A stretch of DNA of 18,105 nucleotides from a virus: IMG/VR virus record IMGVR_UViG_3300045988_053095. One strand, given 5' to 3'. A model generated the notes under the pieces. That model was not told where the DNA came from. It worked only from the letters and a program-made list of their open reading frames with translations, and did no database searches. This document shows, piece after piece, positions 1,045 to 17,625 of this stretch; the first letter of the stretch is position 1; every line of letters starts with the position of its first letter. The position numbers and the translations under genes were made by a program.

Positions 1045-1170
1045 GCCCCGTCGCGCCGTCGAGGTATTGCCATGTCAAATCCCGATATATTCACTATAGT
1101 ATACCTACTTTTCATTTTGCCTATATCCATAGGCTCAATTATATCATTCATAAGAAAGTGAGATAATACC

Positions 1171-1491: not shown

Positions 1492-1729
1492 TGCAAAAGA
1501 CTACCACGATTTAACGCCAAACTCTCGCCGCGCCATCGCAAAATTAGACGGATTTTACTGCCCCTCTGACTGCAAGCATTGCCCATTTTATAGTGATGAC
1601 GCCATCACCGTAAATTACGAAATTCTCACCTACTCACTCGGGAAATCTGAACCAAAGCAATGCACTCATGAGGGCCATTGTATCATCAACGCAGCTCGCG
1701 TAGAGTTCCCTAATTGGAGGTATGAATAA
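1484..1729 (+). CDS. Small Cys/His-rich early protein (81 aa)
   Basis: AAGAGGTG RBS 7 nt upstream of the ATG. Contains CPSDCKHCP and CTHEGHC clusters, suggesting metal binding (inference). Confidence 0.7.
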   Translation: MFNAKDYHDLTPNSRRAIAKLDGFYCPSDCKHCPFYSDDAITVNYEILTYSLGKSEPKQCTHEGHCIINAARVEFPNWRYE

Positions 1730-1948
1730 ATGACCGGCAGCATTCAAATTGAATACTTAAGCAACGATTCGGTTCGAGTTGGCGGGCATATGGAAGATGT
1801 AACGCTATTTGATAAACAACACCTTGTTATGATTCTTGCTCACGCGCTCGGTCTAACAGCAAGCGATATGCGTTTAGCTTACCTCGCATATTCCGAATTT
1901 CTCGCCGAAATGGATTTATCGAACAATCGTTCCACCCCTGACTTATAG
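1730..1948 (+). CDS. Hypothetical early protein (72 aa)
   Basis: ATG directly abuts the previous stop (TAAATG). GGAGG lies 9 nt upstream. Confidence 0.7.
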   Translation: MTGSIQIEYLSNDSVRVGGHMEDVTLFDKQHLVMILAHALGLTASDMRLAYLAYSEFLAEMDLSNNRSTPDL

Positions 1949-2038
1949 CCCCAACCTATACCCAGCTATTGGAATATCCTATTGGACAACAGCCCCACAA
2001 TCTGCTACAATGAATATATCAAACGGAGGAACATCACG

Positions 2039-2224
2039 ATGAACGAATCCTATTACGACCTCTTTTGCTCCCGTTTCCCGCAAGACAAATTATTCCAGCA
2101 TTACGCTCTCCGCAACTGCTGCCCTCATTGGTTTTTCGATATTCCCTACAACTGCGATTGCATGACCGACACTTGCGCGAAATGTTGGGGCAGAATCCCC
2201 GACTACCCGCCGACCATCAAATAG
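2039..2224 (+). CDS. Small Cys-rich early protein (61 aa)
   Basis: The track ORF starts at TTG 1982, but the in-frame ATG at 2039 has ACGGAGGA 8 nt upstream. Eight Cys residues (CC..C.C....C..C pattern). Confidence 0.6.
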   Translation: MNESYYDLFCSRFPQDKLFQHYALRNCCPHWFFDIPYNCDCMTDTCAKCWGRIPDYPPTIK

Positions 2225-2326
2225 TCCATCTGCAAAGCGGGCTTGCGTGGAAATTTAATTACCGAAAGGAAGTGTTAAAACCTCTCCCTTTTGTGGTAAA
2301 TTCATCCTACCATATCTTCACCTTTT

Positions 2327-2409
2327 CCGTTGACTGTCGAAACAGCCCTGCCCGCTGGGGCTGTCTACCGGAGCCGGTTACTTCGGTACTGATGAGACAA
2401 ACCTCACGG
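2327..2409 (+). ncRNA. Type II hammerhead self-cleaving ribozyme (predicted cleavage after C2365)
   Basis: Core CUGAUGA at 2389-2395 and GAA at 2339-2341. The A15.1-U16.1 pair is A2342-U2364, and the GUC cleavage triplet is 2363-2365. Stem III is 2342-2348/2358-2364 (7 bp). Stem I hairpin is 2366-2372/2382-2388 (7 bp, one G-U). Open stem II is 2335-2338/2396-2399 with the G10.1-C11.1 pair, extended by 2327-2330/2406-2409. Loop I GGUU (2376-2379) is complementary to AACC (2400-2403) in the stem II internal loop. Confidence 0.85.
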
Positions 2410-2435
2410 AAAACACAACCAGAAAGGGAAACAAC

Positions 2436-2720
2436 ATGAAAGCACCCCAGATTACCCGCACCTTTACCACCACCCGCGCAACCATCCTTGGCCTTGACAC
2501 CATCAACGCAGAACCTATGAATAAGGACATTGACCTTGCCGGTCACTTTGAGTCCGAGGACAAGATTATCAAGGCCGCGAAGAAGCTCATTGAGACTGAG
2601 GACTTCAAGGTCTGCAAGCTCGTCCGCTGCGAGGAAATCACCGAGCTGCGCGGAATGAGCGTTCAGAAGTTCCTCGAGAACTCCGAAGTCATCCCCGAGA
2701 AGAACGCCGACAACCAGTAA
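2436..2720 (+). CDS. Abundant early protein, possible phi29 p6-like dsDNA-binding (histone-like) protein (94 aa)
   Basis: AAAGGGAA RBS. Strong C/G-ending codon bias (AAG, GAG, CTC, ATC), unlike the upstream early genes. Position two genes upstream of the TP/DNAP pair matches phi29 order 6-5-(4)-3-2. Loose resemblance to recalled phi29 p6 (ITKTT... and ...VEKFLE... segments). Coding status is likely; the product call is tentative. Confidence 0.55.
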   Translation: MKAPQITRTFTTTRATILGLDTINAEPMNKDIDLAGHFESEDKIIKAAKKLIETEDFKVCKLVRCEEITELRGMSVQKFLENSEVIPEKNADNQ

Positions 2721-2756
2721 CCAACCAACAAATCAAATTAAATGGAGATTATCAAA

Positions 2757-3152
2757 ATGACCGGATATGAAGCTAAAATCGCCTACTCTTCCAAGGAACT
2801 CACCGCTCGCGAGAAAATCAAGCTCAAGGATTTGACCAACGCCGTCCAGCTCGATGAAGCCACTCAGAACGCCGAGTTCGAGGGCGCGGGCAACCTCGTC
2901 ATAACTCCCGACTATTACGCCGAAGTCTCCGTCCACAACGAGAAGTCCGACAGCAAGGATTACGTCAAGTTCGTCGTGGTTGACACCAACGGCACGAAGT
3001 ACGTCACCGGCTCTGAGAGCTTCATCACCGCTTTCAAGGGCATCGTTGACGAGATGGCAGACGCCGGTGAAGAGGGCTACGACATCGAGGTCTACCGCAT
3101 GGAAAGCAAGAACTACAAGGGCAAGAGTTTCATTACCTGTTCCCTCAAGTAA
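2757..3152 (+). CDS. Possible phi29 p5-like single-stranded DNA-binding protein (131 aa)
   Basis: The track start is 2742, but GGAG (2744-2747) sits 9 nt upstream of the in-frame ATG 2757. Same high-expression codon bias. The C-terminal pattern (...DTNGTKYVTGSESF...SKNYKGKSFITCSLK) resembles recalled phi29 p5 (...ADGSLYSAISKT...SSKGNVFFSLQLSL). Synteny supports the call; the product is tentative. Confidence 0.55.
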   Translation: MTGYEAKIAYSSKELTAREKIKLKDLTNAVQLDEATQNAEFEGAGNLVITPDYYAEVSVHNEKSDSKDYVKFVVVDTNGTKYVTGSESFITAFKGIVDEMADAGEEGYDIEVYRMESKNYKGKSFITCSLK

Positions 3153-3200
3153 CACCAACAGCGTAACCATTTGTAACCTTTTAAACTAACTGCTCATTGC

Positions 3201-3233
3201 ACCGGAGAGGGAACTTGTCACTCCCTCTCCGGT
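3201..3233 (+). promoter_or_regulatory. Perfect 12-bp stem-loop without U-tract (possible attenuator or 3' mRNA stabiliser)
   Basis: accggagaggga (3201-3212) pairs perfectly with tccctctccggt (3222-3233), with a 9-nt loop. It is followed by aactaaaa, not a U-run. It lies between the SSB-like and TP-candidate genes. Confidence 0.5.
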
Positions 3234-3252
3234 AACTAAAAGGGGTGATACA

Positions 3253-4290
3253 GTGTCACTTAAATCAGAGTACAATAAAGAGCGAGCGCGAGTAGAAAAA
3301 CTCGCTCGAAAGCTCGAAAAGCAAGGCTACACATTTGGAGATAACATTCTCCCGCCAATCCCGAAGCGCCCGACAGCAGCAAGCATAAAGCGAATAGCAA
3401 AAATCAACGGCGGCTTTCTTCGGGCACGGGCAATCACACAACCAGAGCCAACAGCAGCCCCAAGCATTAAGCGCTCTACCATCTCACAGCCCAAGGTAAA
3501 AGCCCCTAAAATCCCGAAGCCGACAAAAGCCGCGAATGAATACACCGCAAAAGGAAAGCAACAGGCAAGACCGGAATTAGAGAAATTCCGAAAAATAGGC
3601 CAGAATCCTTATATCCCGCACCCGCGCTCGAAGCAATCCGGGCAGCTTGTAAGCCTGAAAAACTTCATGCGGAACGCTGAAAAGCGCGGCTTTCAATTTC
3701 AGCTATCAGCAGAAGAACTATTTCAAAATCCATTCGAGAAGCACTCAGAGCTATACCAATACGCCACCTATGTTGACCCTGAAACCGGAGAGCTTTTAAC
3801 GGGCTTAGAGGGTAGGGCATTAGAAAAACAGAGAGCAGCGCGAAAGGCACAAGACACAAAGAAATACAAGGCTGGAAAAGCGGCAGCACTTGAACTGATT
3901 CCTGAAACACCAGCTACTCCATATCCCACAGAGCAAGAAATAGGCTATAACAATCTAATGTCACTTCTTCGCACCGTTTCAGAGGGTGGTTCAAGCCTAA
4001 TGTTGGGCTTAGACTTACAATATCAAAGAAACGCTACAGGAATGCTAAACGCAGTAGACCGTGCGATTGATACAATAGGGCTAAGAGCTTTTCTTGAAAT
4101 GTTAAAAACGCCAGAGGGCGAATATCTCTTGACTAAGGCATACGACGCTATCTTTGCAAGTGATGATTATGTAGCAAGAGAGTGGGCTACACACCTTGAG
4201 CACTTGCTGCATAAAAACAATCTCATTTCTGACGACGAATTGAAACAGATTCAAGACGAGCGCAATGAAACGTGGGAACTTGTGAAATAA
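3253..4290 (+). CDS. Terminal protein candidate (345 aa)
   Basis: GTG start with AAAGGGG upstream. It sits immediately upstream of the protein-primed DNA polymerase, as in phi29 gene 3. Basic Lys/Pro-rich N-terminal half (KVKAPKIPKPTK). The call is positional because TP sequences are poorly conserved. Confidence 0.6.
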   Translation: MSLKSEYNKERARVEKLARKLEKQGYTFGDNILPPIPKRPTAASIKRIAKINGGFLRARAITQPEPTAAPSIKRSTISQPKVKAPKIPKPTKAANEYTAKGKQQARPELEKFRKIGQNPYIPHPRSKQSGQLVSLKNFMRNAEKRGFQFQLSAEELFQNPFEKHSELYQYATYVDPETGELLTGLEGRALEKQRAARKAQDTKKYKAGKAAALELIPETPATPYPTEQEIGYNNLMSLLRTVSEGGSSLMLGLDLQYQRNATGMLNAVDRAIDTIGLRAFLEMLKTPEGEYLLTKAYDAIFASDDYVAREWATHLEHLLHKNNLISDDELKQIQDERNETWELVK

Positions 4291-4311
4291 CCCGAAAGGG
4301 AATGAAAGAAT

Positions 4312-6261
4312 GTGGCTAAACGCTCATACCGCTACTTTGTAGGGGACTTTGAAACAACCGTCTACAAGGGACAAGTAAATACGGAGGTATGGGCAAGCGC
4401 CGCCGTGGAACTCTTTACCGAAGATGTTAAAATCTTCCATTCCATAGATGAAACCTTTGACTACTTCTGTTCCCTTAAAACGAACATCATTTGTTACTAC
4501 CACAACTTGAAATTCGACGGCTCATTTTGGCTCTCCTACCTCTTAACGGAAAAAGGCTATCAACAGGCACTTGAATACAACAGCGACAGCGAATATGATT
4601 GTCAATGGATTTCAGCATGGAAAATGCCCTCCGGCTCATTCCGCTACTCAATCAGTAACCGAGGGCAATGGTACACCATCACTATTAAAGTAGGTAAGTT
4701 CATAATCGAGTTCCGCGACAGCTTGAAGCTCCTCCCATTCTCTGTCAAGCGAATCGGTAAGAGCTTCAAGACTAAGCACCAGAAACTCGACATGGAATAC
4801 ACCGGCTTACGATATGCTGGCTGCACCATTACACCGGAAGAACAAAAGTACATAGCAAATGACGTTCTCGTCGTAAAAGAAGCTATGGAAATAATGTTCA
4901 CCGAGGGGCATAACAAACTCACGATAGGCTCTTGTTGCCTTGATGAGTTCACCAAGCTGACCGGTAAAGAAGAATACGAATACTACTTCCCAGACGTATA
5001 CGACATACCAATAGACCCAGAACAGCATAAACAAGCAACAGCCGGAGACTGGATTAAGAAAAGTTATCGAGGTGGATGGTGTTATTTAGCAAGAGGAAAA
5101 GAGAACAAAGTGTTTACCAACGGTACAACGGCAGACGTAAACAGTCTATATCCATCCGTTATGTCATCGGAAAGCGGAAACCGTTATCCGGTTGGAAAGC
5201 CACAGTTCTGGATAGGCGAGCCACCGAAGTGGATAGACACCGATGATAAAATCTTTTATTTCATTCGCTTGCGAACACGCTTCAAAATCAAAGACGGTAT
5301 GTTGCCATTCATTCAAATCAAGGGCAATCTTCTCTACCGCGGAAACGAAATGCTTGAAACCTCTGACATTTACGACCCGAAAACAAAGCAATACTACGAC
5401 CACTACTACGACTTAGATGGAAACCTTGTACCAGCAACAGTAGAATTAACTTTAACCATGATGGACTACCACCTACTACTTGAACATTATGACCTATCAG
5501 ACACCGAGTATATAGACGGGTGCTGGTTCGCAACTGAAATCGGTTTATTCGATCGATACATGGAGAAGTACAAGAAGATTAAAATGGAAAGCAAGGGCGC
5601 AATGCGAGAGCTTGCCAAGCTCTTCTTGAATAACCTATATGGTAAGATGGCGTCCAGCACAGACAGCAGCTTCAAGGTTGCTTACGTCAAAGAGGATAAA
5701 TCTCTTGGCTTCATCGAGATAGAAGAACACAACAAGAAAGCGGGCTATATACCCATCGGATCGGCGATAACCTCTTACGCCCGCAACTTCACCATCCGAG
5801 CCGCGCAGCTAAACTATCACGGCAAAGACAAGCGAGGGTTTATCTACGCCGACACCGACAGTATTCATTGCGACATCGCACCGGAAGAGATAAAAGGAAT
5901 CAATGTACATCCAACAAACTTCTGCTGCTGGAAGCTGGAAAGCTGTTGGGACAAGGGAATCTTTGCAAGACAGAAAACGTACATCGAGCATATCACGCAC
6001 GAGGACTGTGAACCAATCGAAGAGCCGTTCTACAACGTGAAGTGCGCCGGTATGCCTGACGCTTGCAAGGAGTTGCTGATTAACAGCATCACACAAACAA
6101 AGACAAGGAAAGAATACACCGAAGAGGAAGAGCAATTCATAAACCAGAAACGAGAACTAACTGATTTCAAAGTGGGCTTGTCAATACCGACAGGCAGACT
6201 AAAACCGAAAAGGATAATGGGCGGCATACTTCTTGTAGATGGGCCTTATGAAATGCGATGA
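4312..6261 (+). CDS. Family B DNA polymerase, protein-primed (phi29 gp2-like, 649 aa)
   Basis: GTG start. Exo I is FVGDFETT, Exo II is HNLKFDG, Exo III is YIANDV. Motif A is DVNSLYPS, motif B is KLFLNNLYGK, motif C is YADTDS, and the KxY motif is QKTYI. Confidence 0.95.
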   Translation: MAKRSYRYFVGDFETTVYKGQVNTEVWASAAVELFTEDVKIFHSIDETFDYFCSLKTNIICYYHNLKFDGSFWLSYLLTEKGYQQALEYNSDSEYDCQWISAWKMPSGSFRYSISNRGQWYTITIKVGKFIIEFRDSLKLLPFSVKRIGKSFKTKHQKLDMEYTGLRYAGCTITPEEQKYIANDVLVVKEAMEIMFTEGHNKLTIGSCCLDEFTKLTGKEEYEYYFPDVYDIPIDPEQHKQATAGDWIKKSYRGGWCYLARGKENKVFTNGTTADVNSLYPSVMSSESGNRYPVGKPQFWIGEPPKWIDTDDKIFYFIRLRTRFKIKDGMLPFIQIKGNLLYRGNEMLETSDIYDPKTKQYYDHYYDLDGNLVPATVELTLTMMDYHLLLEHYDLSDTEYIDGCWFATEIGLFDRYMEKYKKIKMESKGAMRELAKLFLNNLYGKMASSTDSSFKVAYVKEDKSLGFIEIEEHNKKAGYIPIGSAITSYARNFTIRAAQLNYHGKDKRGFIYADTDSIHCDIAPEEIKGINVHPTNFCCWKLESCWDKGIFARQKTYIEHITHEDCEPIEEPFYNVKCAGMPDACKELLINSITQTKTRKEYTEEEEQFINQKRELTDFKVGLSIPTGRLKPKRIMGGILLVDGPYEMR

Positions 6262-6473
6262 GAAGAAAAAGAATTACACTAAATGACACGGTAGACCAAC
6301 TGCTGAAAGAGGGGTTCAGCGACGTGTTAGTTGACGCTTGTGGTTTGTGGGTAAGACAACCTGATAACGTAAAAGCCAGATACGGAAAACTGTTTGTCAG
6401 GTATGTTGACCGCACATACGATGACCACACCGCTTTTGTAGAAGTAGAGTACCCAGCATTGTGGTTTTTATAA
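6258..6473 (+). CDS. Hypothetical protein (71 aa), translationally coupled to DNAP
   Basis: ATGA start/stop overlap with the polymerase gene. No family recognised. Confidence 0.6.
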   Translation: MRRKRITLNDTVDQLLKEGFSDVLVDACGLWVRQPDNVKARYGKLFVRYVDRTYDDHTAFVEVEYPALWFL

Positions 6474-6483
6474 GGAGAAAGCT

Positions 6484-6630
6484 ATGGTTATTTTATTACT
6501 CACAGCAACGTGCTGCTTGATGTGTGTCGCTCTTATTGTCCTCGCGTTCTGGCTGAATCACTTGGACAATAAACTCGACGAGCTGCATGAAGAAGTAACA
6601 GAAAAGCGCGAAAGGTGGGACTTCCGATGA
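6484..6630 (+). CDS. Small single-pass membrane protein (48 aa), absent from the ORF track
   Basis: AAGGAG RBS 6 nt upstream of ATG 6484. Sequence is MVILLLTATCCLMCVALIVLAFWL followed by a charged helical tail. Confidence 0.55.
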   Translation: MVILLLTATCCLMCVALIVLAFWLNHLDNKLDELHEEVTEKRERWDFR

Positions 6631-6725
6631 GCGCTGAATTGATTCTCTGGCTCTGGTCAGGTGTTGTAGTAGCGATTGCCTACTATATGTTATTTCATAC
6701 AGGTGGTGATGGATTAGATGGCTAA
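6627..6725 (+). CDS. Possible mini membrane peptide (32 aa), absent from the ORF track
   Basis: ATGA overlap with the previous ORF stop. Hydrophobic core LILWLWSGVVVAIAYYMLF. Its stop overlaps the next start. Very short, so uncertain. Confidence 0.4.
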   Translation: MSAELILWLWSGVVVAIAYYMLFHTGGDGLDG

Positions 6726-6918
6726 CTATGAAAGAATGTGGAATAGCTTAAAGCGAGAGCTTAAACAGCTGGAAGAGCATTACAGTGATATGCGCTTGAA
6801 CTACGCAAGGAAAGGTCAGCCTACTCTTGCTACGCATTTCAAAGAGCGTGGAGACGGAGTAGCAGAAGCAATCATGTATATGGATTTAGCGGAGGATGAC
6901 GAGCATGGACAAGAGTAA
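6718..6918 (+). CDS. Hypothetical acidic helical protein (66 aa)
   Basis: GGTGGTGATGGA purine-rich RBS. Chained with its neighbours by overlaps. Confidence 0.6.
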   Translation: MANYERMWNSLKRELKQLEEHYSDMRLNYARKGQPTLATHFKERGDGVAEAIMYMDLAEDDEHGQE

Positions 6919-7093
6919 CTTGTATATTGGTGAATCGTGCGGAACGTGCGCACATAGCGAGGTATGTATTCACCGGATTAAAGGTAACAATATGGAAGCA
7001 ACAGGTATAGCGAATGGGGCTGCTCAGGAGTTGCCTGAGCCGTTCAAGATTAAATTATTCTGCTCGAAATACAAAAGCCGAAGTCTAAACTAA
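6905..7093 (+). CDS. Small Cys-containing protein (62 aa)
   Basis: The track start 6896 abuts GGAGG with no spacing. The in-frame ATG 6905 is 9 nt from GGAGG. CGTC...C motif. Last gene of the rightward early block. Confidence 0.55.
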   Translation: MDKSNLYIGESCGTCAHSEVCIHRIKGNNMEATGIANGAAQELPEPFKIKLFCSKYKSRSLN

Positions 7094-7099
7094 AATTTA

Positions 7100-7131
7100 G
7101 TGCGGGATAGAGACGAATCCCTATCCCGCAC
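7100..7131. terminator. Bidirectional stem-loop terminator between convergent blocks
   Basis: gtgcgggatag (7100-7110) pairs with ctatcccgcac (7121-7131). On the minus strand it is followed by an A/T-rich uaaauuuua tail; on the plus strand by auuguauc. Confidence 0.7.
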
Positions 7132-7247
7132 ATTGTATCAACAACAGATGCACACCGAAAGCGGTCAGCGAAACCGATACATTTTCAGGCGGTACATTCA
7201 AACCGTGCTACCCTGAAATGGCGGTCGGTGAAACAACTGATGATACC
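7132..7247 (-). other. Structured non-coding segment between the packaging ATPase stop and the terminator (candidate ncRNA or structured 3' UTR)
   Basis: Four nested complementary pairs: 7135-7140/7241-7246, 7153-7157/7226-7230, 7180-7189/7212-7220 (one bulge) and 7190-7193/7202-7205. Also a direct repeat, gcggtc-nnn-gaaac, at 7161 and 7221. No credible ORF. Confidence 0.35.
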
Positions 7248-8282
7248 TTAATAAGATAAACTTTTGAGAACCGCTTCTTTGCACCGCAGGTCTTTGAAGC
7301 GGAAGCATCCACGCTCGAAGTAGTAACGGAGATTGAATAGGAACAAATCATTCCTCTTGAGCATGACATAATTCAGCTCGTGGTCGTCCGTCGTGACGGT
7401 GATTTTCAGCGGGAATGTTTCATCCGCTCTATCGTCACAATAGATAACACCAGCTTCCGCGAACTCGCGAATACCATACGTCTGGCCGTTATACTTCAAC
7501 GTAGCCATATATCGGCCAACACCTTGCGGACGGTCAACGAACGCCTTATTGTCGTTCAGATACACGCTTTCCGAAGAGTAAGCCACATAACTATTCCGAG
7601 CGAACGCCTTATTGAAGCCGCTGCTCTTCTGCGCGTCAGCGGCGCTCTCTACAAAGCCCTGTTCCAGAACGAAACCATCTCCACGCAGGAAGCGTGTTTC
7701 ATCCGTAAGGCGAGAGCTGATACCCAGCTCCACATAGTAGGGGTTGATAATGCTGACAGGGTTCGAGAGCATATAGACCGGAAGATAACGGTTCTGTTCG
7801 CCTTGTCCACGGGCCATAGAGGTATGAACGGAAATGAACTTCTTGATTTCGTTCGGGCAATAGGTATTGCTTTCACTCTGGAACTCGTCGAAGATAAGGC
7901 GCTTAACGTCAGAGAAGAAATGAGAGTTCTTCTTAACTTGGTCTGCGCTGTTGATACTCACGGCATAACCGCACGGCTCACCGTTCAGATAAAGCTCGTG
8001 ATAGATTCCCTTGGCTCTCTTCTTGGAAGTCATGGTGTAACCGTTGAAGAACAGCTCGCCAATGTCCTTGAAGAACTTCTCCGCGCAATCATCCAGCTCA
8101 TAGTTGTAACGATAAAGCAGGCCAAACTTCTCTCGCTTATCGAGGAAGCGGTTGACGACAAGTCTACCGAAGTAAGTAGTCTTACCACCGGTACGGTTGG
8201 TCGTACACATATAAATCTCAGGGCGATTGCCGTTAATGTCGGTCAAGCTCAGCAGCTTAGTTCCGTCGTAGTAGTTGCCCAT
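7248..8282 (-). CDS. DNA encapsidation (packaging) ATPase, phi29 gp16-like (344 aa)
   Basis: Walker A is TNRTGGKTT and Walker B is RLIFDEF. Size is close to phi29 gp16. TAATG coupling to the upstream ORF. Confidence 0.9.
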   Translation of the reverse strand: MGNYYDGTKLLSLTDINGNRPEIYMCTTNRTGGKTTYFGRLVVNRFLDKREKFGLLYRYNYELDDCAEKFFKDIGELFFNGYTMTSKKRAKGIYHELYLNGEPCGYAVSINSADQVKKNSHFFSDVKRLIFDEFQSESNTYCPNEIKKFISVHTSMARGQGEQNRYLPVYMLSNPVSIINPYYVELGISSRLTDETRFLRGDGFVLEQGFVESAADAQKSSGFNKAFARNSYVAYSSESVYLNDNKAFVDRPQGVGRYMATLKYNGQTYGIREFAEAGVIYCDDRADETFPLKITVTTDDHELNYVMLKRNDLFLFNLRYYFERGCFRFKDLRCKEAVLKSLSY

Positions 8283-8458
8283 TACTTCTTCTCGTCTGTA
8301 TGCTTCGTCACAAAGTAGAAGCTGATAACCATGCTAAATACAGTCATAAACTGTTCAGCTGTGATAACCCCCACAATGGCGAGATAGCAGAACACCCCAG
8401 AAAGGGCAAAAGCGATGATACTGCAAACATTGAACAGAGAAACGATTTTATCAAACAT
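8282..8458 (-). CDS. Holin candidate, two predicted TM helices (58 aa)
   Basis: The track start is 8536, but the internal ATG at 8458 follows GGAGAGGTGAG. Two hydrophobic segments and a charged C-terminus (TKHTDEKK). Confidence 0.6.
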   Translation of the reverse strand: MFDKIVSLFNVCSIIAFALSGVFCYLAIVGVITAEQFMTVFSMVISFYFVTKHTDEKK

Positions 8459-8672
8459 CTTTCTCACCTCTCCAAACCTTAGAAATTTTGATAGCGCCGA
8501 GAGCCATAGCTTCAATCTTAGAAGCATCAAGAACACAGGAAATCAAAGTATCAGGAACAGCCCCTTTAACCCAGAACGTGATAATCATGGAAACTATGAA
8601 AACTAACAGGAAAAGGGCGAGGATAACCAGCACCCTTTTACTGGTAGCAGACCGCTTAGTTCGCCGTCCCAC
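8451..8672 (-). CDS. Small membrane-anchored protein (73 aa)
   Basis: GTG start with AAGGA 8 nt upstream. Basic N-terminus followed by one TM helix (VLVILALFLLVFIVSMIITFW). Confidence 0.5.
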   Translation of the reverse strand: MGRRTKRSATSKRVLVILALFLLVFIVSMIITFWVKGAVPDTLISCVLDASKIEAMALGAIKISKVWRGEKDV

Positions 8673-8898
8673 TTTCCAAATCCTTGATTCGATTATTGGC
8701 TACCTTGATTCTCTCTTCCAGAACATCAATTCTGGTGTGGAGTTCGGAAATTTCTTTCGCGTCAGACGCGAGTGCGGAGACCTTTTTCTCCAACTCCAAC
8801 AGCCGGTATTCCACCAGCGCCGAAGATTTCCGATTAGCCATATATGAGCCGAGAATACTGGCGAACGCTGCAAATCCGGCTACAATGACACTTTCCAT
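8656..8898 (-). CDS. Membrane-anchored coiled-coil protein (80 aa)
   Basis: GAGGTG RBS 5 nt upstream of the ATG. N-terminal TM helix, then a heptad-rich helix (LLELEKKVSALASDAKEISELHTRIDVLEERIKV). First gene after the leftward promoter. Confidence 0.65.
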   Translation of the reverse strand: MESVIVAGFAAFASILGSYMANRKSSALVEYRLLELEKKVSALASDAKEISELHTRIDVLEERIKVANNRIKDLESGTAN

Positions 8899-8947
8899 GA
8901 TTGCACCTCAAATGAAATAAAGTTAAAGGCATAATCTATCTAATCAT

Positions 8948-8976
8948 ATTATAAATGCAACTTGACATTTTGTCAA
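8948..8976 (-). promoter_or_regulatory. Leftward consensus promoter (drives the membrane-protein/ATPase block)
   Basis: On the minus strand: TTGACA (complement of 8971-8976), 17-nt spacer, TATAAT (complement of 8948-8953). Confidence 0.75.
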
Positions 8977-8990
8977 GTACATATTATAAT
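8962..8990 (+). promoter_or_regulatory. Rightward consensus promoter (drives the structural gene block)
   Basis: TTGACA (8962-8967), 17-nt spacer, TATAAT (8985-8990). It lies 63 nt upstream of the scaffold gene ATG. Confidence 0.75.
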
Positions 8991-9052
8991 ATGTATAAAG
9001 GGTAAGGAAATTTGCCTTTACTTTATAATTTCAGAACGAAAGGAGTGACACG

Positions 9053-9370
9053 ATGCCGCAGTTAAACCGAGACGATTTCATGGCGCGAATCAATTCCAGA
9101 TTGGGCGATGATAACTCCGAAGATGCCCTGAACTTTATGCGTGATATGGCAGACACTTTTGATGGGTTATCCTCTCAGCCTGCCGACGTTGTTAGCAAGT
9201 CGGACTTCGATAACTTGCAGGGGCGTTATGACGAGCTTTCGAGAAATTATCGAGAAAGGTTTATGTCCGCGCCCATTGTACCGCAAGAACCTGAGCCGCC
9301 GAATCCTAATGATGAAGCGGAACAGAGAGCAAAGTCTATCGGCTTCAAAGACTTGTTCTCTACGAAATAA
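9053..9370 (+). CDS. Scaffolding protein candidate (105 aa)
   Basis: AAAGGAG RBS. Acidic and likely helical. It sits immediately upstream of the major capsid gene, as does phi29 gp7. The call is positional. Confidence 0.6.
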   Translation: MPQLNRDDFMARINSRLGDDNSEDALNFMRDMADTFDGLSSQPADVVSKSDFDNLQGRYDELSRNYRERFMSAPIVPQEPEPPNPNDEAEQRAKSIGFKDLFSTK

Positions 9371-9394
9371 TGTATTTGAAAGGAGAATGAAGCT

Positions 9395-10762
9395 ATGCCT
9401 AATAAGCCCGCTCTGGTCACTCTGACCAACAGCAGCGTGGACGTGCTGAACGCTATCCGCAACAGCGCTTCCATGAACTATCAGAACTATGTCCCAATTG
9501 CAACCCCCGACGCTGACAGCGTTCGCAAGATTGGCGCTATCATCATGGATAACGTCACTCTCCAGAATGAGTTTGTCAACGCCCTCGTCAACCGTATTGG
9601 CCGCGTTATCGTGACTTCCAAGCTCTATGACAATCCTTGGGCTTCCTTTAAGAAAGGTATGCTCGAGTTCGGCGAGAACATCGAAGAGATTTTCGTGGAG
9701 CTTGCCAAGGCTCAGCAGTATGACCCCAGCGTCGCCGAGAGTCAGTTCGCAAAGCGTGTCATTCCCGACATTCGCTCTGCGTTCCACATCCTGAACTACA
9801 AGAAGTTCTACAAGAACACCATTCAGAACAACTCTCTCCGTCAGGCGTTCCTGTCTTGGGACGGTATCACCGACCTGATTGCGAAGATTGTCGAGTCTAT
9901 GTACACAGCCGCGAACTATGATGAGTTCAACGTCATGAAGTACATGGTCGCTCGCAAGATTCTGGACGGGCGTATGTTCGTCAAGCAGGTTGACGCTGTT
10001 ACTGACGCGAACATGAAGTCTATCGTTTCTACGATTAAGGGTATTTCCAATGACCTCACCTTTATGTCCACGAAGTACAACGTCGCCGGTGTTCACTCTT
10101 ATACCAATAAGGACAACCAGTATCTCATCGTCAACTCCAAGTTCGAGGCCCAAATGAACGTCGAAGTTCTCGCATCTGCGTTCAACATGGACAAGGCAGA
10201 GTTCGCCGGTCACATGGTTCTCGTGGACAGCTTCGGCTCTCTCGATACTGCCCGCCTTGGCGAGCTGTTCAAGGATGACCCGAACTATGACGAGATTTCC
10301 GCTGACCAGCTCGCGGCTCTGGATGAGATTCCCGCCATCCTCGTTGACCGTGACTGGTTCATGGTTTATGACAACCTCGTTCAGTTCGATGAAATGTATA
10401 TCGGTGAGGGTATGTACTGGCAGTATTGGCTCCACCTGTGGAAGACGTTCTCCGTCTCTCCGTTCGCCAACGCCATTACGTTCGTCCCTGATACGCCGAC
10501 TGTTACCAAAGTGACGGTCAGCCCGACTTCCGCGAATATCACCGGTGCTACCGGCGGCACGGTTCAGGTGACTGCTACCGTTGCCACCACCAACTTCGCG
10601 CCGCAGGAAGTGACTTACACTTCTGACAATCCCGCTGTTACAGTGACGGCTTCCGGTCTTGTCACCGTTCCCGCAGGTACGGCTACCAGTAAGGCTAATA
10701 TTACCGCGACTTCCACGTTCGATACCACGAAGAAAGCGATTTGCACCATTACGATTGCATAA
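9395..10762 (+). CDS. Major capsid protein with C-terminal Big_2 Ig-like domain (455 aa)
   Basis: AAAGGAG RBS and high-expression codon bias. Size and position match phi29 gp8. The C-terminal ~85 aa (VTKVTVSP...VQVTATV...VTYTSDNPAVTVTASGLVT...) is a typical bacterial Ig-like group 2 domain. Confidence 0.88.
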   Translation: MPNKPALVTLTNSSVDVLNAIRNSASMNYQNYVPIATPDADSVRKIGAIIMDNVTLQNEFVNALVNRIGRVIVTSKLYDNPWASFKKGMLEFGENIEEIFVELAKAQQYDPSVAESQFAKRVIPDIRSAFHILNYKKFYKNTIQNNSLRQAFLSWDGITDLIAKIVESMYTAANYDEFNVMKYMVARKILDGRMFVKQVDAVTDANMKSIVSTIKGISNDLTFMSTKYNVAGVHSYTNKDNQYLIVNSKFEAQMNVEVLASAFNMDKAEFAGHMVLVDSFGSLDTARLGELFKDDPNYDEISADQLAALDEIPAILVDRDWFMVYDNLVQFDEMYIGEGMYWQYWLHLWKTFSVSPFANAITFVPDTPTVTKVTVSPTSANITGATGGTVQVTATVATTNFAPQEVTYTSDNPAVTVTASGLVTVPAGTATSKANITATSTFDTTKKAICTITIA

Positions 10763-10775
10763 AGGTGCCGAACAC

Positions 10776-10806
10776 AGAGGGAGGGGTTCCCTCCTCCCCT
10801 CCCTCT
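10776..10806 (+). terminator. Stem-loop after the capsid gene (probable partial terminator)
   Basis: agagggagggg (10776-10786) pairs with cccctccctct (10796-10806), with a 9-nt loop. Followed by aatttta. Confidence 0.6.
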
Positions 10807-10831
10807 AATTTTATAAGAAAGGAGAAACGGA

Positions 10832-12622
10832 ATGTCAGCTGTTGCACCTAACACAATAGTAAAATTTCTTAGGGGCGTCCCGCTTGAAGCGACGTATGAA
10901 AATACGGCATATTGGGATACTGCTACTAAAACAAAGACAGACCAAGCGGCAGCGTTTAATGGTTATGTCAAGCCTGATATGATTGACCCGACAAGCGGTG
11001 TTCAGTATAGTTTTATATTGAACAATCAAAGCTATCAGCGATATGGGCGCAACCAAATCAAAGTTCAGATTCCCATGGATTTGCTGCTTGATTGTAACTA
11101 TCTCATGTTCAACAATCAACGATTTGGTAACAAGTGGTTTTACGCTTTTATCACGCACCTTGAATATATCAGCGAAGTTGTAACGCTTGTAAGCTATGAA
11201 ATTGACGTGCTGCAAACATGGGCTTTTGATTACACTCCGAATCCCTGCTATATCGAGCGTTGTCATTCTGAGACGGATGACCCGGGCGATAATCTCGTCG
11301 AGGAAAATCTTGAACTCGGCGAATACATTTGGCAGCAAGACAGCTTCACCGTGCCGACAGGCTTTGACGAGCTTGATAAAATCGGGTACTTCATTTGCGC
11401 CCCTTGGATTGGAACCGTCACCACCGATGAACAGGGCGATAGAAAAGTTACGATTGAGAAAGACCAGCGTGGTATTTTCGTCTCAGGCATTTTCAATGGT
11501 GTTTATATCAACGCCTATGATAACCTGAATGACGCAAGAGCGGTTATTGCAGAAGCGGCAAGAACTCTGGGCGACCAGTCAACGGCTATCCTCGCTGTGT
11601 ACATTGCGCCATACAACGCCTATAAATTTGGCGAGAATTATGCGATGTATCTGAAAAACGTGACGTTTGATAGCGGGGCATATTCTGACCCCGATTCAAC
11701 TACCGGCACATACTTCCCGTTTAACGCAAAGCTATTTACATACCCTTACCGTGGGATTCTTGTGCAGAATGCTAATGGTGAGAGCCACATTTATCGCTAC
11801 GAGTTTTTCCGAAATAGAATCACTACACCGTCCGCGTGGAATTATAATTGCGAGTTTGAAGCGATTTGCGACCCCACACCAAACGGTACTGTATTTATGA
11901 TCCCCGTGAACTATAAAGAGGGATGGATAAAAGGCGTAGATTACCCGCCTGAATCCAAGGCAAAGATAACCTTTAACTGGCGAGAATCTATGACAAGCGG
12001 TTCTTATAGCCAGCTATCCTTTACGACGGATTCCTATACCAGCTATCTTGCTCAGTCTGGCGTGGTTCAGGTGCTTGATGGCCTTGGCGCTAATGTTAAC
12101 ACCTCCACCGGTCTTGGCGGTGGCACGTCAATACTGAATGTTTTAGGCAATGCTCTGAGTTCACTTGTCGGAGGAGCTATGAGCGCTATTGCCGGAAATG
12201 TTGCGGGTGGTGTGGTTAGTGGTGTTGGCGGCGTTGTCTCCTCGCTTTCTGAAAACTTCAAGGCGCAGAATATGCCGAATAGCACAATGGGCGTTTCCGG
12301 CTCGAAGCAGATTCCGATTGATTTCAAGGTTGGTACATTTCAGTTTTTCAACTTCCGAATCACAAAAGAGTACGCCCAAAAGCTGGACAACTTTTTTAGC
12401 CTATATGGCTATGCGGATAAGTCTACGAAAGCCCCGCCGAGACATAACCGAAAGCATTGGACATATTGCAAGACGCAGAACTGCACCATTAACGGCTCTA
12501 TTCCTGCCGATGACGAGCGTAAAATCTGTGACCTGTATAATGCCGGTATTCGGTGGTGGGTTAATCTCAATGAGATTGGCAAGTATGACACACTAATTCA
12601 GGACAATCATGTTCTTCCGTAA
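10832..12622 (+). CDS. Tail knob / distal tube protein, phi29 gp9-like (596 aa)
   Basis: AAAGGAG RBS. The segment GNKWFYAFITHLEY...YEIDVLQTWAFD matches my recollection of the conserved phi29 gp9 N-terminal region. Size is near the 599 aa of gp9. Confidence 0.85.
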   Translation: MSAVAPNTIVKFLRGVPLEATYENTAYWDTATKTKTDQAAAFNGYVKPDMIDPTSGVQYSFILNNQSYQRYGRNQIKVQIPMDLLLDCNYLMFNNQRFGNKWFYAFITHLEYISEVVTLVSYEIDVLQTWAFDYTPNPCYIERCHSETDDPGDNLVEENLELGEYIWQQDSFTVPTGFDELDKIGYFICAPWIGTVTTDEQGDRKVTIEKDQRGIFVSGIFNGVYINAYDNLNDARAVIAEAARTLGDQSTAILAVYIAPYNAYKFGENYAMYLKNVTFDSGAYSDPDSTTGTYFPFNAKLFTYPYRGILVQNANGESHIYRYEFFRNRITTPSAWNYNCEFEAICDPTPNGTVFMIPVNYKEGWIKGVDYPPESKAKITFNWRESMTSGSYSQLSFTTDSYTSYLAQSGVVQVLDGLGANVNTSTGLGGGTSILNVLGNALSSLVGGAMSAIAGNVAGGVVSGVGGVVSSLSENFKAQNMPNSTMGVSGSKQIPIDFKVGTFQFFNFRITKEYAQKLDNFFSLYGYADKSTKAPPRHNRKHWTYCKTQNCTINGSIPADDERKICDLYNAGIRWWVNLNEIGKYDTLIQDNHVLP

Positions 12623-12634
12623 GGTGGTGAATAA

Positions 12635-13531
12635 ATGGCAAGAAAACGCAATAACCGCGAGTTCTGGCAGAGCGCTTGTAGCAACGACAGAACGTTCCTT
12701 ATGTACTATAATCGCCTTACGGAACTCGCTACTTCCATGTTTGAGTGGAAAAACCTCCCCGACACGATTGACCAGCGATACCTTGAGCTTACCCTTTATG
12801 CCAAGGGACAGGCGGTGTTCTTCTATGACGGTATGCCCGCCGAGAATCCTCTCGGCTATCTCGCTCTCAACGTGGCTGCTTCCGCTCCGTTTAATGTGTA
12901 CGCTATACCCAAGGGCAGACGTGCGTATGCCATTACAGGTGCTCAATGGAATCTGACAGAGGATAATAGTGTTATCATTTATAATAACTATCTTCGACTG
13001 CCGACCATGTATGAAATGGAGTTCTATGCCCAGCGCTTGTGGGATTTAGACCGGACGATTGATATAAACGCCCGCTCGCAGAAAACGCCTATTCTCATTA
13101 AGTGCGAGGAAAACCAGCGACTCACCATGCTCAATCTCTATAAGGAGTATGACGGCAACGCTCCTGTTATTTTCGGCGACAAGAACCTTTCTCCAAACGG
13201 CTTACAGGTTCTTACGACTGGTGCTGAGTTTACGGCTGATAGAATCTATGAGCTTCGCACGAAGATTTGGAATGAAGCTCTGGAACGACTTGGAATCTCG
13301 GCGATTCAGCATAAGGCCGAACGACTGGTTCAGCAGGAAGCCGCTCAGGCTCAGGGTGCTACGGTAGCAAGCCGATATAGCCGACTGAAAATGCGACAGA
13401 TGGCTTGTGAGCAAATCAATAAGATGTTCGGGCTGAATATCTCCGTCGAGTATTCGCAGGACTACCAGATTATGGACACCGAGGAAATCGACGCAGAGAA
13501 TAAGGAAAGCGAGGAAGAGGTCGATGAGTAA
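12635..13531 (+). CDS. Portal (upper collar / connector) protein, phi29 gp10-like (298 aa)
   Basis: AAGGTGGTGA RBS. Three segments resemble recalled phi29 gp10: the N-terminal MARKR, FEWKNLP, and QKTPILI...YKEYDGNAPVIFGD. Acidic C-terminus. Confidence 0.88.
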   Translation: MARKRNNREFWQSACSNDRTFLMYYNRLTELATSMFEWKNLPDTIDQRYLELTLYAKGQAVFFYDGMPAENPLGYLALNVAASAPFNVYAIPKGRRAYAITGAQWNLTEDNSVIIYNNYLRLPTMYEMEFYAQRLWDLDRTIDINARSQKTPILIKCEENQRLTMLNLYKEYDGNAPVIFGDKNLSPNGLQVLTTGAEFTADRIYELRTKIWNEALERLGISAIQHKAERLVQQEAAQAQGATVASRYSRLKMRQMACEQINKMFGLNISVEYSQDYQIMDTEEIDAENKESEEEVDE

Positions 13532-14327
13532 GTACACAACGGAACTTCGCTTTATCTGTGAATCGCTCGCGGGGCAGACGGAAAGCCAAGGATATGACCA
13601 AGTGAATTGGATTATCGAACAGGCCGCGCCAAAAATTTTCTCGTTTGATTTCCCAATGTTCGATGAGAGCTATCGGAGTGTGTTGGAGAAGAAAATTCTC
13701 AAGCACTACTATACAAGAGAAATTGGACTGGAAACTTACGGCCTGTGGCAGCTCAAGCTCGACACCAAAATGAATGAAATCATGCCGTATTTCAATCAGA
13801 GGTATAAGAGCGAGACGCTGGAATTTAATCCTCTGTATGATTTCGACGTTACCCGTGACCACAAGAATCAGAAAGACGAGACCGGTAAGCTCGTTGGTTC
13901 GGCTACGAATACCGGCGAGAGCGCGAATACCGGCACAGTCACCGATGCTGGCACGAGTTCACAGACGGATGATAACACGGCTACCAGAAAGAACAAGTTC
14001 AGCGATACTCCGCAGGGCGCTCTTACCAATGTTGAGAATGGCACATACCTCACCAATGCGGAGATTGATGATACTCAGGTCAACAATCAGAGCGACGTTG
14101 AGACAAACAATACCAGAACACTTAACACCAAGAACGCCGTAAACAATGAGACTACCACCAACACGACCAACACCGTGAACAGCACCGAGGACTTCGTGGA
14201 ACACGTCAGAGGAAAGCAGAGTGGAACGAGCTATTCTAAATTGCTGGAAGAGTATCGTAAGACTATGCTGAACATTGATATGGAAGTCATTGATTCCCTC
14301 GCTGACCTGTTCATGAATCTGTGGTAA
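13524..14327 (+). CDS. Lower collar protein, phi29 gp11-like (267 aa)
   Basis: ATGA-type overlap with the portal gene. Position and size match gp11. Thr/Asn-rich low-complexity central region. Confidence 0.7.
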   Translation: MSKYTTELRFICESLAGQTESQGYDQVNWIIEQAAPKIFSFDFPMFDESYRSVLEKKILKHYYTREIGLETYGLWQLKLDTKMNEIMPYFNQRYKSETLEFNPLYDFDVTRDHKNQKDETGKLVGSATNTGESANTGTVTDAGTSSQTDDNTATRKNKFSDTPQGALTNVENGTYLTNAEIDDTQVNNQSDVETNNTRTLNTKNAVNNETTTNTTNTVNSTEDFVEHVRGKQSGTSYSKLLEEYRKTMLNIDMEVIDSLADLFMNLW

Positions 14328-14339
14328 GGAGTGATTGCT

Positions 14340-14471
14340 ATGGTTGAGTTAATCAAAGATTGCCCCATTCCAAATCCTACGCTTCCTGCCGCATATACCG
14401 ATTCGCTGTCTCTCTATGAAGAGATATGCAAATTAGAATATGAGAAAGGAGAAGAGGAAAATGCTATTTAA
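14340..14471 (+). CDS. 43-aa ORF duplicating the fibre-anchor N-terminal motif (possibly a vestigial gene fragment)
   Basis: AAGGAG RBS 8 nt upstream of the ATG; absent from the ORF track. Peptide TLPAAYTDSLSLYEEICKLEYE parallels VLPATYDATLSYYECLAKLTYK of the next gene. Both share the 10-mer gcttcctgcc (14381-14390 and 14511-14520). Confidence 0.4.
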   Translation: MVELIKDCPIPNPTLPAAYTDSLSLYEEICKLEYEKGEEENAI

Positions 14472-15327
14472 TTGGTATGTCAAGCCCCTTAGTTGCTATG
14501 TCAGTAAGGTGCTTCCTGCCACTTATGATGCAACTCTCAGCTACTATGAGTGCCTGGCTAAGCTGACGTATAAGTTGAATGAGACGATTAAGAATCTGAA
14601 TGATTTGGAAGAGAATCTTCCGACTTATGTGCAGCAGGCGATTGACGCTGCTCTTGGCGGCTGGGAAGAGAAAATGCAGCAGCAGTTCGCAGAGCAGAAC
14701 GCAAAGTTACAGGCGATGCAGGAGCAGATTGACGCGCAGGATAAACACATCGACCAGAAGTTAGGCGAGTTCAAGGCTGAACTTGACGCGGCTATCAGGG
14801 AGATGGAAGCTGTGGCTAATCAGCAACTGAGTGCTATGTGGGCTATTCTGACAAGTGGCCTTGCAAGCAACAGGGCGTATACAGATGCGCAGATTGCTAA
14901 GCTACGTTCTGAGTTCCCCGACCTGAGCAACGTGTTCGTTATCTCTCCGGTGGATGGGCGGTTAGTTCCGATTCAGGTGGCGCTGGATGATATGTATGAT
15001 GTGCTTCGATATGGCGCTCTGACTGCTGGGCAGTATGATGCTTTGCAGTTGACAGCTAAGGAGTATGACGACAAGAATCTGACAGCATTCCGGTACGATA
15101 TGTACGGCCTTGTGGAACTGTGGCCTTACCTGAACCCGCATAAGATGCATAGCGTGACAACTGGTGAGTTGACTATCATCGGCACTGCGGTCTATCAGCT
15201 TGCGGATTATGTGAGAAAGAACGGTATCACCGCTCAGGCGTATGATAACTTGCAGCTTACTGCTCAGGCTTATGACGCAAAGCAAGTGACTGGCTACAAT
15301 TACGATTGGGCGGGGGTGACTGCCTAA
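14461..15327 (+). CDS. Tail appendage / fibre-anchor protein with coiled coil and C-terminal repeats (288 aa)
   Basis: The track start is 14440, but ATG 14461 lies 9 nt after AAAGGAG. It has the N-terminal LPATYDATLSYYECLAKL motif, a Gln/Glu-rich coiled coil, and two 96-nt repeat blocks (15013-15108 and 15220-15315). Position corresponds to phi29 gene 12. Confidence 0.7.
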   Translation: MLFNWYVKPLSCYVSKVLPATYDATLSYYECLAKLTYKLNETIKNLNDLEENLPTYVQQAIDAALGGWEEKMQQQFAEQNAKLQAMQEQIDAQDKHIDQKLGEFKAELDAAIREMEAVANQQLSAMWAILTSGLASNRAYTDAQIAKLRSEFPDLSNVFVISPVDGRLVPIQVALDDMYDVLRYGALTAGQYDALQLTAKEYDDKNLTAFRYDMYGLVELWPYLNPHKMHSVTTGELTIIGTAVYQLADYVRKNGITAQAYDNLQLTAQAYDAKQVTGYNYDWAGVTA

Positions 15328-15812
15328 TGGTTTACACAGTAAGGTTCGACCTGTTCAAGCAAGAGGTTACAAGATTTATTGATGGCGAGACGCAGATTCG
15401 GAAGAATTTCAAGTTGAAAGAGCTTTGCAATACGAAAACGGATAATGCGATTAAGCTCGTTGTCAATGAAAGATTGTTCCTGTTTCTGGATATGATGCAG
15501 GAATTGAGAGATAGATACGGGAAACCTATCAATGTTGGAAGCTGGTATCGAGAGGAGAAGTACAATAAAAAGATTGGCGGGAGCTCGAACAGCTTACACC
15601 TTGATGGGCTGGCTTGTGATTTCCACGTTGACCATAATCTGACACAGCATAAGAATATGGAAACAATGTGGAAAGCAATTTGCCAGAAGCACGGCGTGAT
15701 TGGCGGTATTAACCATTACACGCATGGCTACCACGTTTGCATTGGTGAAGAGAAATTCGGGGCGACTGCGTTCGTGGTAAGAGATTATCGTGGGAAGAAA
15801 GGAGACTGGTAA
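15327..15812 (+). CDS. Zinc D,D-/L,D-peptidase of the M15 family (161 aa); endolysin and/or tail-associated lysin
   Basis: TAATG coupling to the previous gene (track start 15306 is TTG). SxHxxGxAxD motif present as SLHLDGLACD, plus a downstream His cluster (HYTHGYH). No cell-wall-binding domain is evident. Confidence 0.82.
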   Translation: MVYTVRFDLFKQEVTRFIDGETQIRKNFKLKELCNTKTDNAIKLVVNERLFLFLDMMQELRDRYGKPINVGSWYREEKYNKKIGGSSNSLHLDGLACDFHVDHNLTQHKNMETMWKAICQKHGVIGGINHYTHGYHVCIGEEKFGATAFVVRDYRGKKGDW

Positions 15813-15814
15813 AG

Positions 15815-16660
15815 TTGAGCCATAGTAAAGGGACGACTAATTATAATCTGCCGCTGTTTACTAAGGACGATAGACCGGCTTGGCTGACGGATTTCAATTC
15901 CGCTATGCTGGAAGTGGATACCGTGGTTAAGGGTCTGTCGGACAAGGTTAAGGCGGGTGGACTGCCGACTTCTGGCGGTACGATGGATGGCAATATCAAT
16001 ATGAATGAACACGCCCTGACGAATGTTCAGGAAATTGAATTGCCGAGTTCCGGTGACGGTTTGTATGTCGGCGCTGTTGTTCAGCCTACTGGTACTACCG
16101 GAGCAAGACTTACTGGCGTTGGCAATGCAAATGCCGCTGCGTTTGTTAAGCCGGATACGCAGGATAGTTATGTGCCGGTGAGAGTTGGCACTCCGCAGAC
16201 CGGCGATGATGCCGTGAATAAGAATAGCTTGAATGGTACACTGTCGAGCTATATGAAGAAGTCAGGCGCTACCATGACTGGGCCGCTGATTCTTGGCGGT
16301 GCGCCTACTGAGGATTTGCAGGCTGCTACGAAGAAGTATGTCGATGACAATGCCGGTAGCGGCGGTATAAGCCAGGAATACGTGGACGCTCAGGTGGGCA
16401 CGAGACTGCCGCTGAACGGTGGCACAATGACTGGGGACCTGGTGCTGGTTAGTGATGTGCCCGCTACGGAGCATAGCGCTACGAGTAAGAACTATGTGCT
16501 CAGGGCATTCGGAAGTTGTCTGCCGAAGAGCGGCGGCACTATGACTGGGCCGCTGACGCTGAGTGGAGCGCCGAATGGTGATTTACAGGCGGCTACGAAG
16601 AAGTATGTAGACGACCAGATTGCGGCGAATATCACGGCGGCTATCAATGCGAGCTATTAA
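15815..16660 (+). CDS. Tail fibre protein 1 (281 aa)
   Basis: TTG start 10 nt after AAAGGAG. N-terminal TNYNLPLF..D.PAWL.DFN.AM..VDT module. Repeated GGTMTGPL.L.GAP..DLQAATKKYVDD units. Confidence 0.8.
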   Translation: MSHSKGTTNYNLPLFTKDDRPAWLTDFNSAMLEVDTVVKGLSDKVKAGGLPTSGGTMDGNINMNEHALTNVQEIELPSSGDGLYVGAVVQPTGTTGARLTGVGNANAAAFVKPDTQDSYVPVRVGTPQTGDDAVNKNSLNGTLSSYMKKSGATMTGPLILGGAPTEDLQAATKKYVDDNAGSGGISQEYVDAQVGTRLPLNGGTMTGDLVLVSDVPATEHSATSKNYVLRAFGSCLPKSGGTMTGPLTLSGAPNGDLQAATKKYVDDQIAANITAAINASY

Positions 16661-17617: not shown

Positions 17618-17625
17618 GGTGTAGT

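Follow-up and report, generated by a model that had tools for sequence, protein, structure and literature searches.

A conserved pair of interlocked divergent promoter sequences in a phi29-like phage genome

Genes and transcription units

The window, i.e. the whole stretch of DNA analysed here (IMG/VR virus record IMGVR_UViG_3300045988_053095, 18,105 nucleotides), is a complete linear phi29-like genome of 18.1 kb. Terminal inverted repeats at 1-55 and 18051-18105 mark it as a complete protein-primed linear genome; the first 34 nt of the repeats are identical by eye. Its gene set is of the phi29 type and comprises a type-B DNA polymerase, a putative terminal protein, SSB, packaging ATPase, major capsid, connector, lower collar, tail knob, M15 endolysin and tail fibres. 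Searched at near-identity over its whole length, the window had no match among deposited phage genomes, and many relatives were found in IMG/VR and in metagenomes. The closest cultured relatives are the Clostridium phages CS229P1-3 of Clostridium symbiosum, with 68% identity in the ATPase, which is annotated as 'DNA packaging protein' in CS229P1. From genes, promoters and terminators we infer three transcription units, one early and rightward, one leftward, and one rightward and structural, with the following components:

~280 to 7093, + strand: early rightward operon (promoter at 252-280, 11/12 matches, with TG extension)
7100-7131, - strand: intrinsic terminator ending the leftward unit (14-pair stem, 8 GC pairs)
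7134-7247, - strand: conserved structured RNA of about 114 nt, candidate pRNA-like (z = -4.9), directly after the ATPase stop
7248-8282, - strand: DNA packaging (encapsidation) ATPase (phrog_2150, E=8e-51)
8282-8672, - strand: two overlapping small hydrophobic ORFs, 73 aa (8451-8672) and 84 aa (8282-8536)
8656-8898, - strand: first gene of the leftward unit, an 80-aa protein with membrane segment and coiled coil, weakly XhlA-like (phrog_1863)
9053-18024, + strand: rightward structural and lysis operon
9053-9370, + strand: scaffold-like protein
9395-10762, + strand: major capsid
10832-12622, + strand: tail knob
12635-13531, + strand: connector
13524-14327, + strand: lower collar
15306-15812, + strand: M15 endolysin
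15815-17617, + strand: tail fibres
18029-18053: terminator after the rightward operon

The early genes are all read rightward from the left end, whereas phi29 has early regions at both ends. Several small Cys-rich CxxC proteins without database match are encoded in the early operon (1484-1729, 1982-2224 and 6896-7093) and could be zinc-binding regulators. In a relative with 67% ATPase identity (L185, MT835854.1), three paralogue-like Cys-rich copies follow the polymerase gene (10470-11066). The gap between the early ORFs 1982-2224 and 2436-2720 contains a type II hammerhead ribozyme (Rfam RF02276, 2335-2406, + strand, 41 bits vs a gathering score of 37), with the full model covered and the CUGAUGA...GAAA core intact; the early polycistronic RNA would be cut there.

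In the leftward unit, the 80-aa protein matches XhlA with E=0.0018, below the curated cut-off. The two small hydrophobic ORFs match families of unknown function (phrog_38777 and phrog_13256) and have a putative holin-like role. The terminator at 7100-7131 also faces the end of the early operon.

About 65 unique relatives share the conserved structured RNA downstream of their ATPase gene, CS229P1 among them (L179, 10552-10666). The RNAalifold prediction for the family has 28 pairs, and compensatory changes occur in 22 of these; its fold combines a long 5'/3' closing helix with a three-way junction bearing two hairpins. Complementarity between the hairpin loops reaches 3.25 within an RNA vs 3.06 +/- 0.05 between RNAs, a weak loop-loop covariation. 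This covariation, the architecture and the adjacency to the ATPase suggest that the ~114-nt RNA is a packaging RNA. The Rfam pRNA model has no match in the window, and a 2024 review describes pRNA as a peculiarity of phi29 and the Bacillus phages related to it. Several near-identical relatives (L100-L102, L104) carry an extra segment in the interval of about 150-200 bp between ATPase stop and RNA; the window does not possess this segment.

Geometry of the promoter dyad

The leftward unit, with its membrane proteins, ATPase, RNA and terminator, and the rightward structural operon are separated by a 154-bp gap with the following elements:

8899-8941, - strand: predicted leftward leader, 43 nt (ATG at 8898)
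8945-8993: imperfect palindrome holding both promoters, centre 8969
8948-8953, - strand: -10 box TATAAT of the leftward promoter (12/12, spacer 17; supported by family comparison)
8962-8967, + strand: -35 box TTGACA of the rightward promoter (12/12, spacer 17; kept in close relatives and in L322)
8971-8976, - strand: -35 box TTGACA of the leftward promoter, inside the rightward spacer (12/12; kept in close relatives and in L322)
8985-8990, + strand: -10 box TATAAT of the rightward promoter (12/12; family counterpart TATAAT in 52-55 of 59 unique dyads)
8997-9052, + strand: predicted rightward leader, 56 nt (ATG at 9053)

The sequence of 8945-8993 is CATATTATAAATGCAACTTGACATTTTGTCAAGTACATATTATAATATG, and the promoter pair proper is a 43-bp stretch with two perfect, opposite-facing promoters. 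Both combine TTGACA and TATAAT boxes at the 17 +/- 1 bp spacing of sigma-A/sigma-70 promoters. The original prediction had placed TTGACA-17-TATAAT promoters rightward at 8962-8990 and leftward at 8976-8948, and both read as claimed. Its imperfect palindrome centred at 8969 is borne out by two inverted-repeat arms of 23 nt each (8945-8967 and 8971-8993), 78% complementary and with 3 nt between them, and the sequence likewise confirms that the -35 hexamers lie 3 bp apart, each inside the other promoter's spacer. The two -10 boxes are separate elements 31 bp apart. Gene content indicates that both arms of the dyad carry late functions.

The window contains 34 promoter-like sites, of which the dyad pair alone matches at 12/12; the next best is the early promoter at 252-280 (11/12), and the gap between the divergent genes holds no further strong promoter. 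Judged by sequence, early and late promoters look equally strong. The crossed pattern ATTATA-N8-TTGACA-N3-TGTCAA-N8-TATAAT (24 specified bases) occurs a single time in the window and in 0/200 dinucleotide-preserving shuffles, even with up to 3 mismatches allowed. The segment 8980-8993 (CATATTATAATATG) is a perfect 14-bp palindrome and consequently presents a second TATAAT leftward at 8988-8983, overlapping the rightward -10 box; this symmetry is gone in the relative L041.

Transcription is predicted to start near 8997 on the rightward side and near 8941 on the leftward side, in each case 7 nt past the -10 box. Both promoters face genes with a Shine-Dalgarno sequence at a sensible distance, which reads AAGGAG at 9040-9045 in the rightward leader and GAGGTG (complement of 8904-8909) in the leftward one. 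The rightward leader has a 5' hairpin AAAGG...CCTTT (about 8997-9021, loop GTAAGGAAATTTG), kept in 7 relatives with changes in the loop; in L041 the stem is kept and the loop altered. A motif GCCTTTA(A)CTTTAT is present in both leaders (within 8997-9033 and 8916-8931). The CCTTT of the leaders is anti-Shine-Dalgarno-like and could pair with ribosome-binding sites.

Occurrence in relatives and in other genomes

All four hexamers are kept in 7 near relatives. The most diverged of these, L041, has 7/8 bases of the right spacer changed and is also altered at the dyad centre and at bases flanking the boxes. Further away, L322 shares the gene order of the window (68% identity in a neighbouring protein) and has a 24/24 dyad with the 3-bp gap kept and the spacers diverged. 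The phi29-like L088 also possesses a 24/24 dyad next to the ATPase, with spacers unrelated to those of the window. Its gene order differs, with the ATPase alone on one arm and a holin-like gene, lysins, scaffold and capsid on the other. A flip of the small membrane proteins across the dyad between lineages was considered and rejected, no homology being found.

The gene to which a search for the dyad has to be anchored is the ATPase gene, not the capsid gene. Relatives found through the capsid gene (60-65% identity) show no dyad within 900 bp upstream of it; in one of them (L007) this is explained by lysin genes upstream of the scaffold gene. At the ATPase/late-gene junction, a crossed pair with 17/17 spacers is present in 82 of 83 ATPase-anchored loci, in most of them 25-50 bp upstream of the ATPase start. 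The relatives found through the ATPase yield 59 unique dyads, on which the family statistics are based. The -10 box is TATAAT in 55/59 on the ATPase side and in 52/59 on the other side, and a TG extension, usually TRTG, accompanies it in 53/59 and 48/59, respectively. TRTG is the Firmicute '-16' motif; most relatives have it, whereas the window dyad does not. The -35 boxes match at a mean of 5.0/6 each, and the gap between them is 2 bp (46 dyads), 3 bp (10), 4 bp (1) or 5 bp (2). Across the family, promoter elements are thus kept while spacers diverge freely, and with four hexamers and 17-bp spacer lengths retained in relatives, the two overlapping divergent consensus promoters of the original prediction hold up as real. 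The dyad is real and conserved, and almost certainly functional. Full-consensus late promoters had been called unexpected, a view that holds against phi29 itself and fails for this clade, in which crossed near-consensus promoters are the rule (82/83).

The dyad of CS229P1 (9413-9456), one of these 82, scores 11/12 and 11/12, both promoters with TG, and together with a 12/12 early promoter near the genome end it makes up the three best sites of that genome. The 2024 review of phi29-like phages includes CS229P1 and says nothing on its promoters. More distant relatives vary in layout. In L183 (MT836152.1, 1931-1989; ATPase 40% identical) the crossed form is replaced by a 24/24 pair placed back to back (TGTCAA-GTC-TTGACA), with TG extensions and spacers of 16 bp, which indicates that promoter geometry at the ATPase junction changed during evolution. 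In L185 (9100-9235) the late promoters do not cross but stand about 77 bp apart, with four operator-like palindromes AGACA-N3-TGTCT between them at 9149, 9169, 9188 and 9207, spaced 19-20 bp, the last overlapping the -35 box of the ATPase promoter. These four palindromes suggest a lineage-specific regulator at the ATPase junction; inspection of the L185 early region by eye revealed no obvious helix-turn-helix or other DNA-binding gene. Clostridium phage HM2 has no such dyad.

The exact 24/24 form with a 3-bp gap was found in 18 IMG/VR contigs, 8 of this phage family and 10 of two unrelated phage groups, and the form with a 2-bp gap in 15 contigs, all of this family. A control scan of IMG/VR for a 4-bp gap returned 0 contigs. 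In bacterial genomes the 3-bp form occurs in 16 contigs, mostly from Clostridia assemblies; a group of integrase-bearing elements is among them, as is one binned phage that belongs to this family. Perfect back-to-back pairs are commoner than crossed ones (>115 contigs among the matches listed), a count that is a lower bound and does not enter any enrichment claim. The crossed 24/24 pairs with a 3-bp gap also turn up in settings unrelated to this family. Those from IMG/VR (L081-L096) include a phage group with a GC content of about 0.35, where the dyad adjoins a 1335-aa ORF. In a marine-type phage group, the crossed dyad is flanked by a ferredoxin-NADP-reductase-like gene and a gene that appears to be leaderless. 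Those from bacterial genome contigs (L351-L366) include the integrase-bearing element of Clostridia assemblies as well as candidate-phyla-radiation genomes; 43-bp palindromes that are almost perfect are seen in L359 and L361. Two pairs of a TetR-like gene and a flavodoxin gene (L355, L362) have a crossed dyad with a second core palindrome nearby (TGACACAGTGTCA in L355, GACAGTGTGTC in L362). The crossed form is a recurrent, uncommon solution and not unique to this phage.

Interpretation of the dyad

The dyad can be assigned to a known class, that of overlapping divergent promoters, since it has two promoters in opposite orientation whose polymerase-binding regions, by the geometry of the sequence, overlap. 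The class is said to have been modelled by Bendtsen et al. in 2011. In such promoters polymerase can itself play the part of a repressor (PMC3167631, PMC4207663). At bidirectional promoters, competition becomes visible only when activity is high (PMC12825309), and the full-consensus boxes of the dyad would place it in that regime, in which competition is expected. As in Pc/Pr of pLS20 and P1/P3 of E. coli aroP, opposite promoters share a polymerase-sized piece of DNA, which there entails mutual exclusion (PMC4207663, PMC3167631). In pLS20, however, the -10 of one promoter doubles as the -35 of its partner, strengths differ about 100-fold and a known regulator, Rco, binds, whereas the dyad has interdigitated boxes and full-consensus promoters on both sides, and the ORFs scanned revealed no regulator. 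The bidirectional promoters of Warman and Grainger resemble the dyad in their pseudo-symmetric sequence that can be read in either orientation; they are weak, with a single shared -10 and starts 10, 18 or 23 bp apart (PMC12825309). The dyad shares -35/spacer DNA instead, and is not of that type, given its separate -10 boxes and predicted starts about 56 bp apart.

The phi29 late promoter A3 has no good -35 box. It depends on the activator p4 and is part of the early/late switch (A2c, A2b, A3, p4, p6) in which, as proposed here, a divergent region controls the late structural operon (PMC11476376). The divergent partners in phi29 are early promoters and the ATPase comes last in the late operon, whereas here both arms are late, the ATPase has an arm of its own and both promoters are consensus. 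Pfam and PHROG scans of the small early ORFs (E <= 0.01) matched SSB only, with no p4-like or DNA-binding family, in agreement with the earlier observation that no p4-like gene is apparent; a regulator too diverged for these profiles may nevertheless be encoded. With consensus -35 boxes on both sides and no p4 found, the dyad is not a p4-dependent late promoter of the phi29 type.

We consider it probable that the dyad is a late bidirectional promoter, in which two interlocked promoters for the housekeeping sigma factor share one polymerase site; most likely, as far as sequence allows, it is the shared start for packaging/lysis genes and structural genes. Two sigma-A/sigma-70-type promoters would lie on opposite strands, each -35 box in the other's 17-bp spacer. 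The leftward one would start a unit of three small membrane proteins, ATPase and structured RNA that ends at the terminator (7131-7100), and the rightward one the operon of scaffold, capsid, tail, endolysin and fibre genes. With predicted starts about 56 bp apart, polymerase footprints (-55 to +20) would overlap by about 55 bp. Such nearly complete overlap implies that one polymerase at a time can bind, in either orientation, and hence that the two late units share an entry point and should compete at high occupancy. The earlier statement that simultaneous occupancy is unlikely follows from the same geometry and agrees with published work. The A+T-rich -10/discriminator region of each promoter lies at the partner's -40 to -60 (86% A+T on both sides), the zone where UP elements act. 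Sequence would accordingly be reused in an intergenic region that in most relatives measures ~100 bp. The dyad sequence, its conservation and its gene context are observed, whereas the start sites, the activity of the promoters, their mutual exclusion and the timing of late expression are predictions in this account.

Other functions for the palindrome were weighed. The inverted repeat of the -35 pair, (C)TTGACA-N3-TGTCAA(G), had been proposed to be an operator, and in such a case it would double as the binding site of a dimeric phage or host repressor, a single bound dimer silencing the two late units until titration or displacement removes it and thereby setting their timing. The core is indeed a perfect palindrome, and consensus promoters would need negative control if timing matters. 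Divergent regions of the Tn10 tetA/tetR type have compact overlapping promoters with a core palindrome, and L355 and L362, which share the crossed geometry of the dyad, provide a precedent with their TetR-like gene and second core copy, as do the four palindromes of L185, the last of them over a -35 box. In TetR-type regions, however, one arm carries the repressor gene and the palindrome occurs more than once, whereas the phage dyad has no repressor gene, a single site and no selection for symmetry. A selected binding site predicts that departures from consensus are mirrored in both arms. In the set of 59 unique dyads, the -35 arms match each other at 4.02/6, less than permuted partners do (4.38 +/- 0.08), and of 118 non-consensus positions a single one is symmetric. 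When hexamers and TRTG zone are set aside, the arms are identical at 59/245 positions (0.24), which is chance level. Selection for palindromy was thus tested twice, by arm permutation and by identity outside the motifs, and rejected. The half-site spacing is not fixed but takes values of 2, 3, 4 or 5 bp among phages with homologous proteins, and a search of the window for a second TTGACA-N3-TGTCAA with up to 2 mismatches returned the dyad only, a frequency that chance alone would give. Scans of the early ORFs yielded no DNA-binding domain, and the outer C and G of the inner repeat agree with the extended -35 consensus tcTTGACat. The asymmetric departures and the chance-level outer symmetry indicate that the palindrome is a by-product of two promoters and not a conserved operator; the operator proposal is therefore not upheld, and a repressor acting through this site appears unlikely. 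The accompanying suggestion that late timing relies on repression or competition at the dyad is speculative.

It is far less probable still that only one promoter is used and the other is its accidental mirror image. Nothing specific speaks for this beyond the general point that consensus matches alone do not prove function, while both directions are equally kept in the family (-10 in 55 and 52 of 59, TG in 53 and 48 of 59), each arm needs a promoter for which the ~100-bp gap of the relatives offers no alternative, and distant relatives retain two divergent promoters even where these are back to back (L183) or separated (L185). Least credible of all, to the point of being nearly negligible, is a structural DNA signal, i.e. 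a cruciform, recombination or replication site without promoter function. The 23-nt arms around a 3-nt centre would suit such a signal, as would the differences in gene order beside the dyad between lineages; palindromy beyond the promoter boxes is not conserved, however, phi29-type genomes replicate from protein-primed ends (here with terminal repeats and a type-B polymerase), and the small flanking proteins of different lineages have no detectable homology and hence give no sign of a simple inversion.

Several points weigh against the late bidirectional promoter. Both of its promoters are full consensus without visible control, which gives no account of how late genes would be kept late, if indeed they are. 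Structural proteins are needed far above the ATPase, so that equal promoters would require compensation after transcription. The operator-like palindromes of L185, moreover, indicate that regulators act at this junction in some lineages. A more speculative extension, which we regard as doubtful, is that this p4-less branch has placed its whole late programme on one 'coin-flip' site, where each initiation would serve either the packaging-motor arm (ATPase and co-transcribed pRNA-like RNA) or the structural arm. On any one template, output from one arm would then be coupled to that from the other and anticorrelated with it. Late timing would be achieved without an activator and might come from copy number or from a small early protein that binds the -35 dyad, e.g. 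the product of a Cys-rich early ORF.

The dyad represents a compact version of an established promoter layout, not a novel type of switch. It yields a transcription map, open to experimental testing, for a large and hardly studied clade of small phages that infect gut Clostridia, with an early operon from one end, one compact two-way late promoter in mid-genome and no recognisable p4-type activator. The phi29 paradigm of a weak late promoter plus activator would accordingly not carry over to these relatives. CS229P1 on C. symbiosum provides a cultured system for the question of late timing, and two full-consensus promoters at one site make a natural test case for predicted polymerase competition. 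If the RNA at 7134-7247 is a packaging RNA, pRNA would extend beyond the Bacillus phages.
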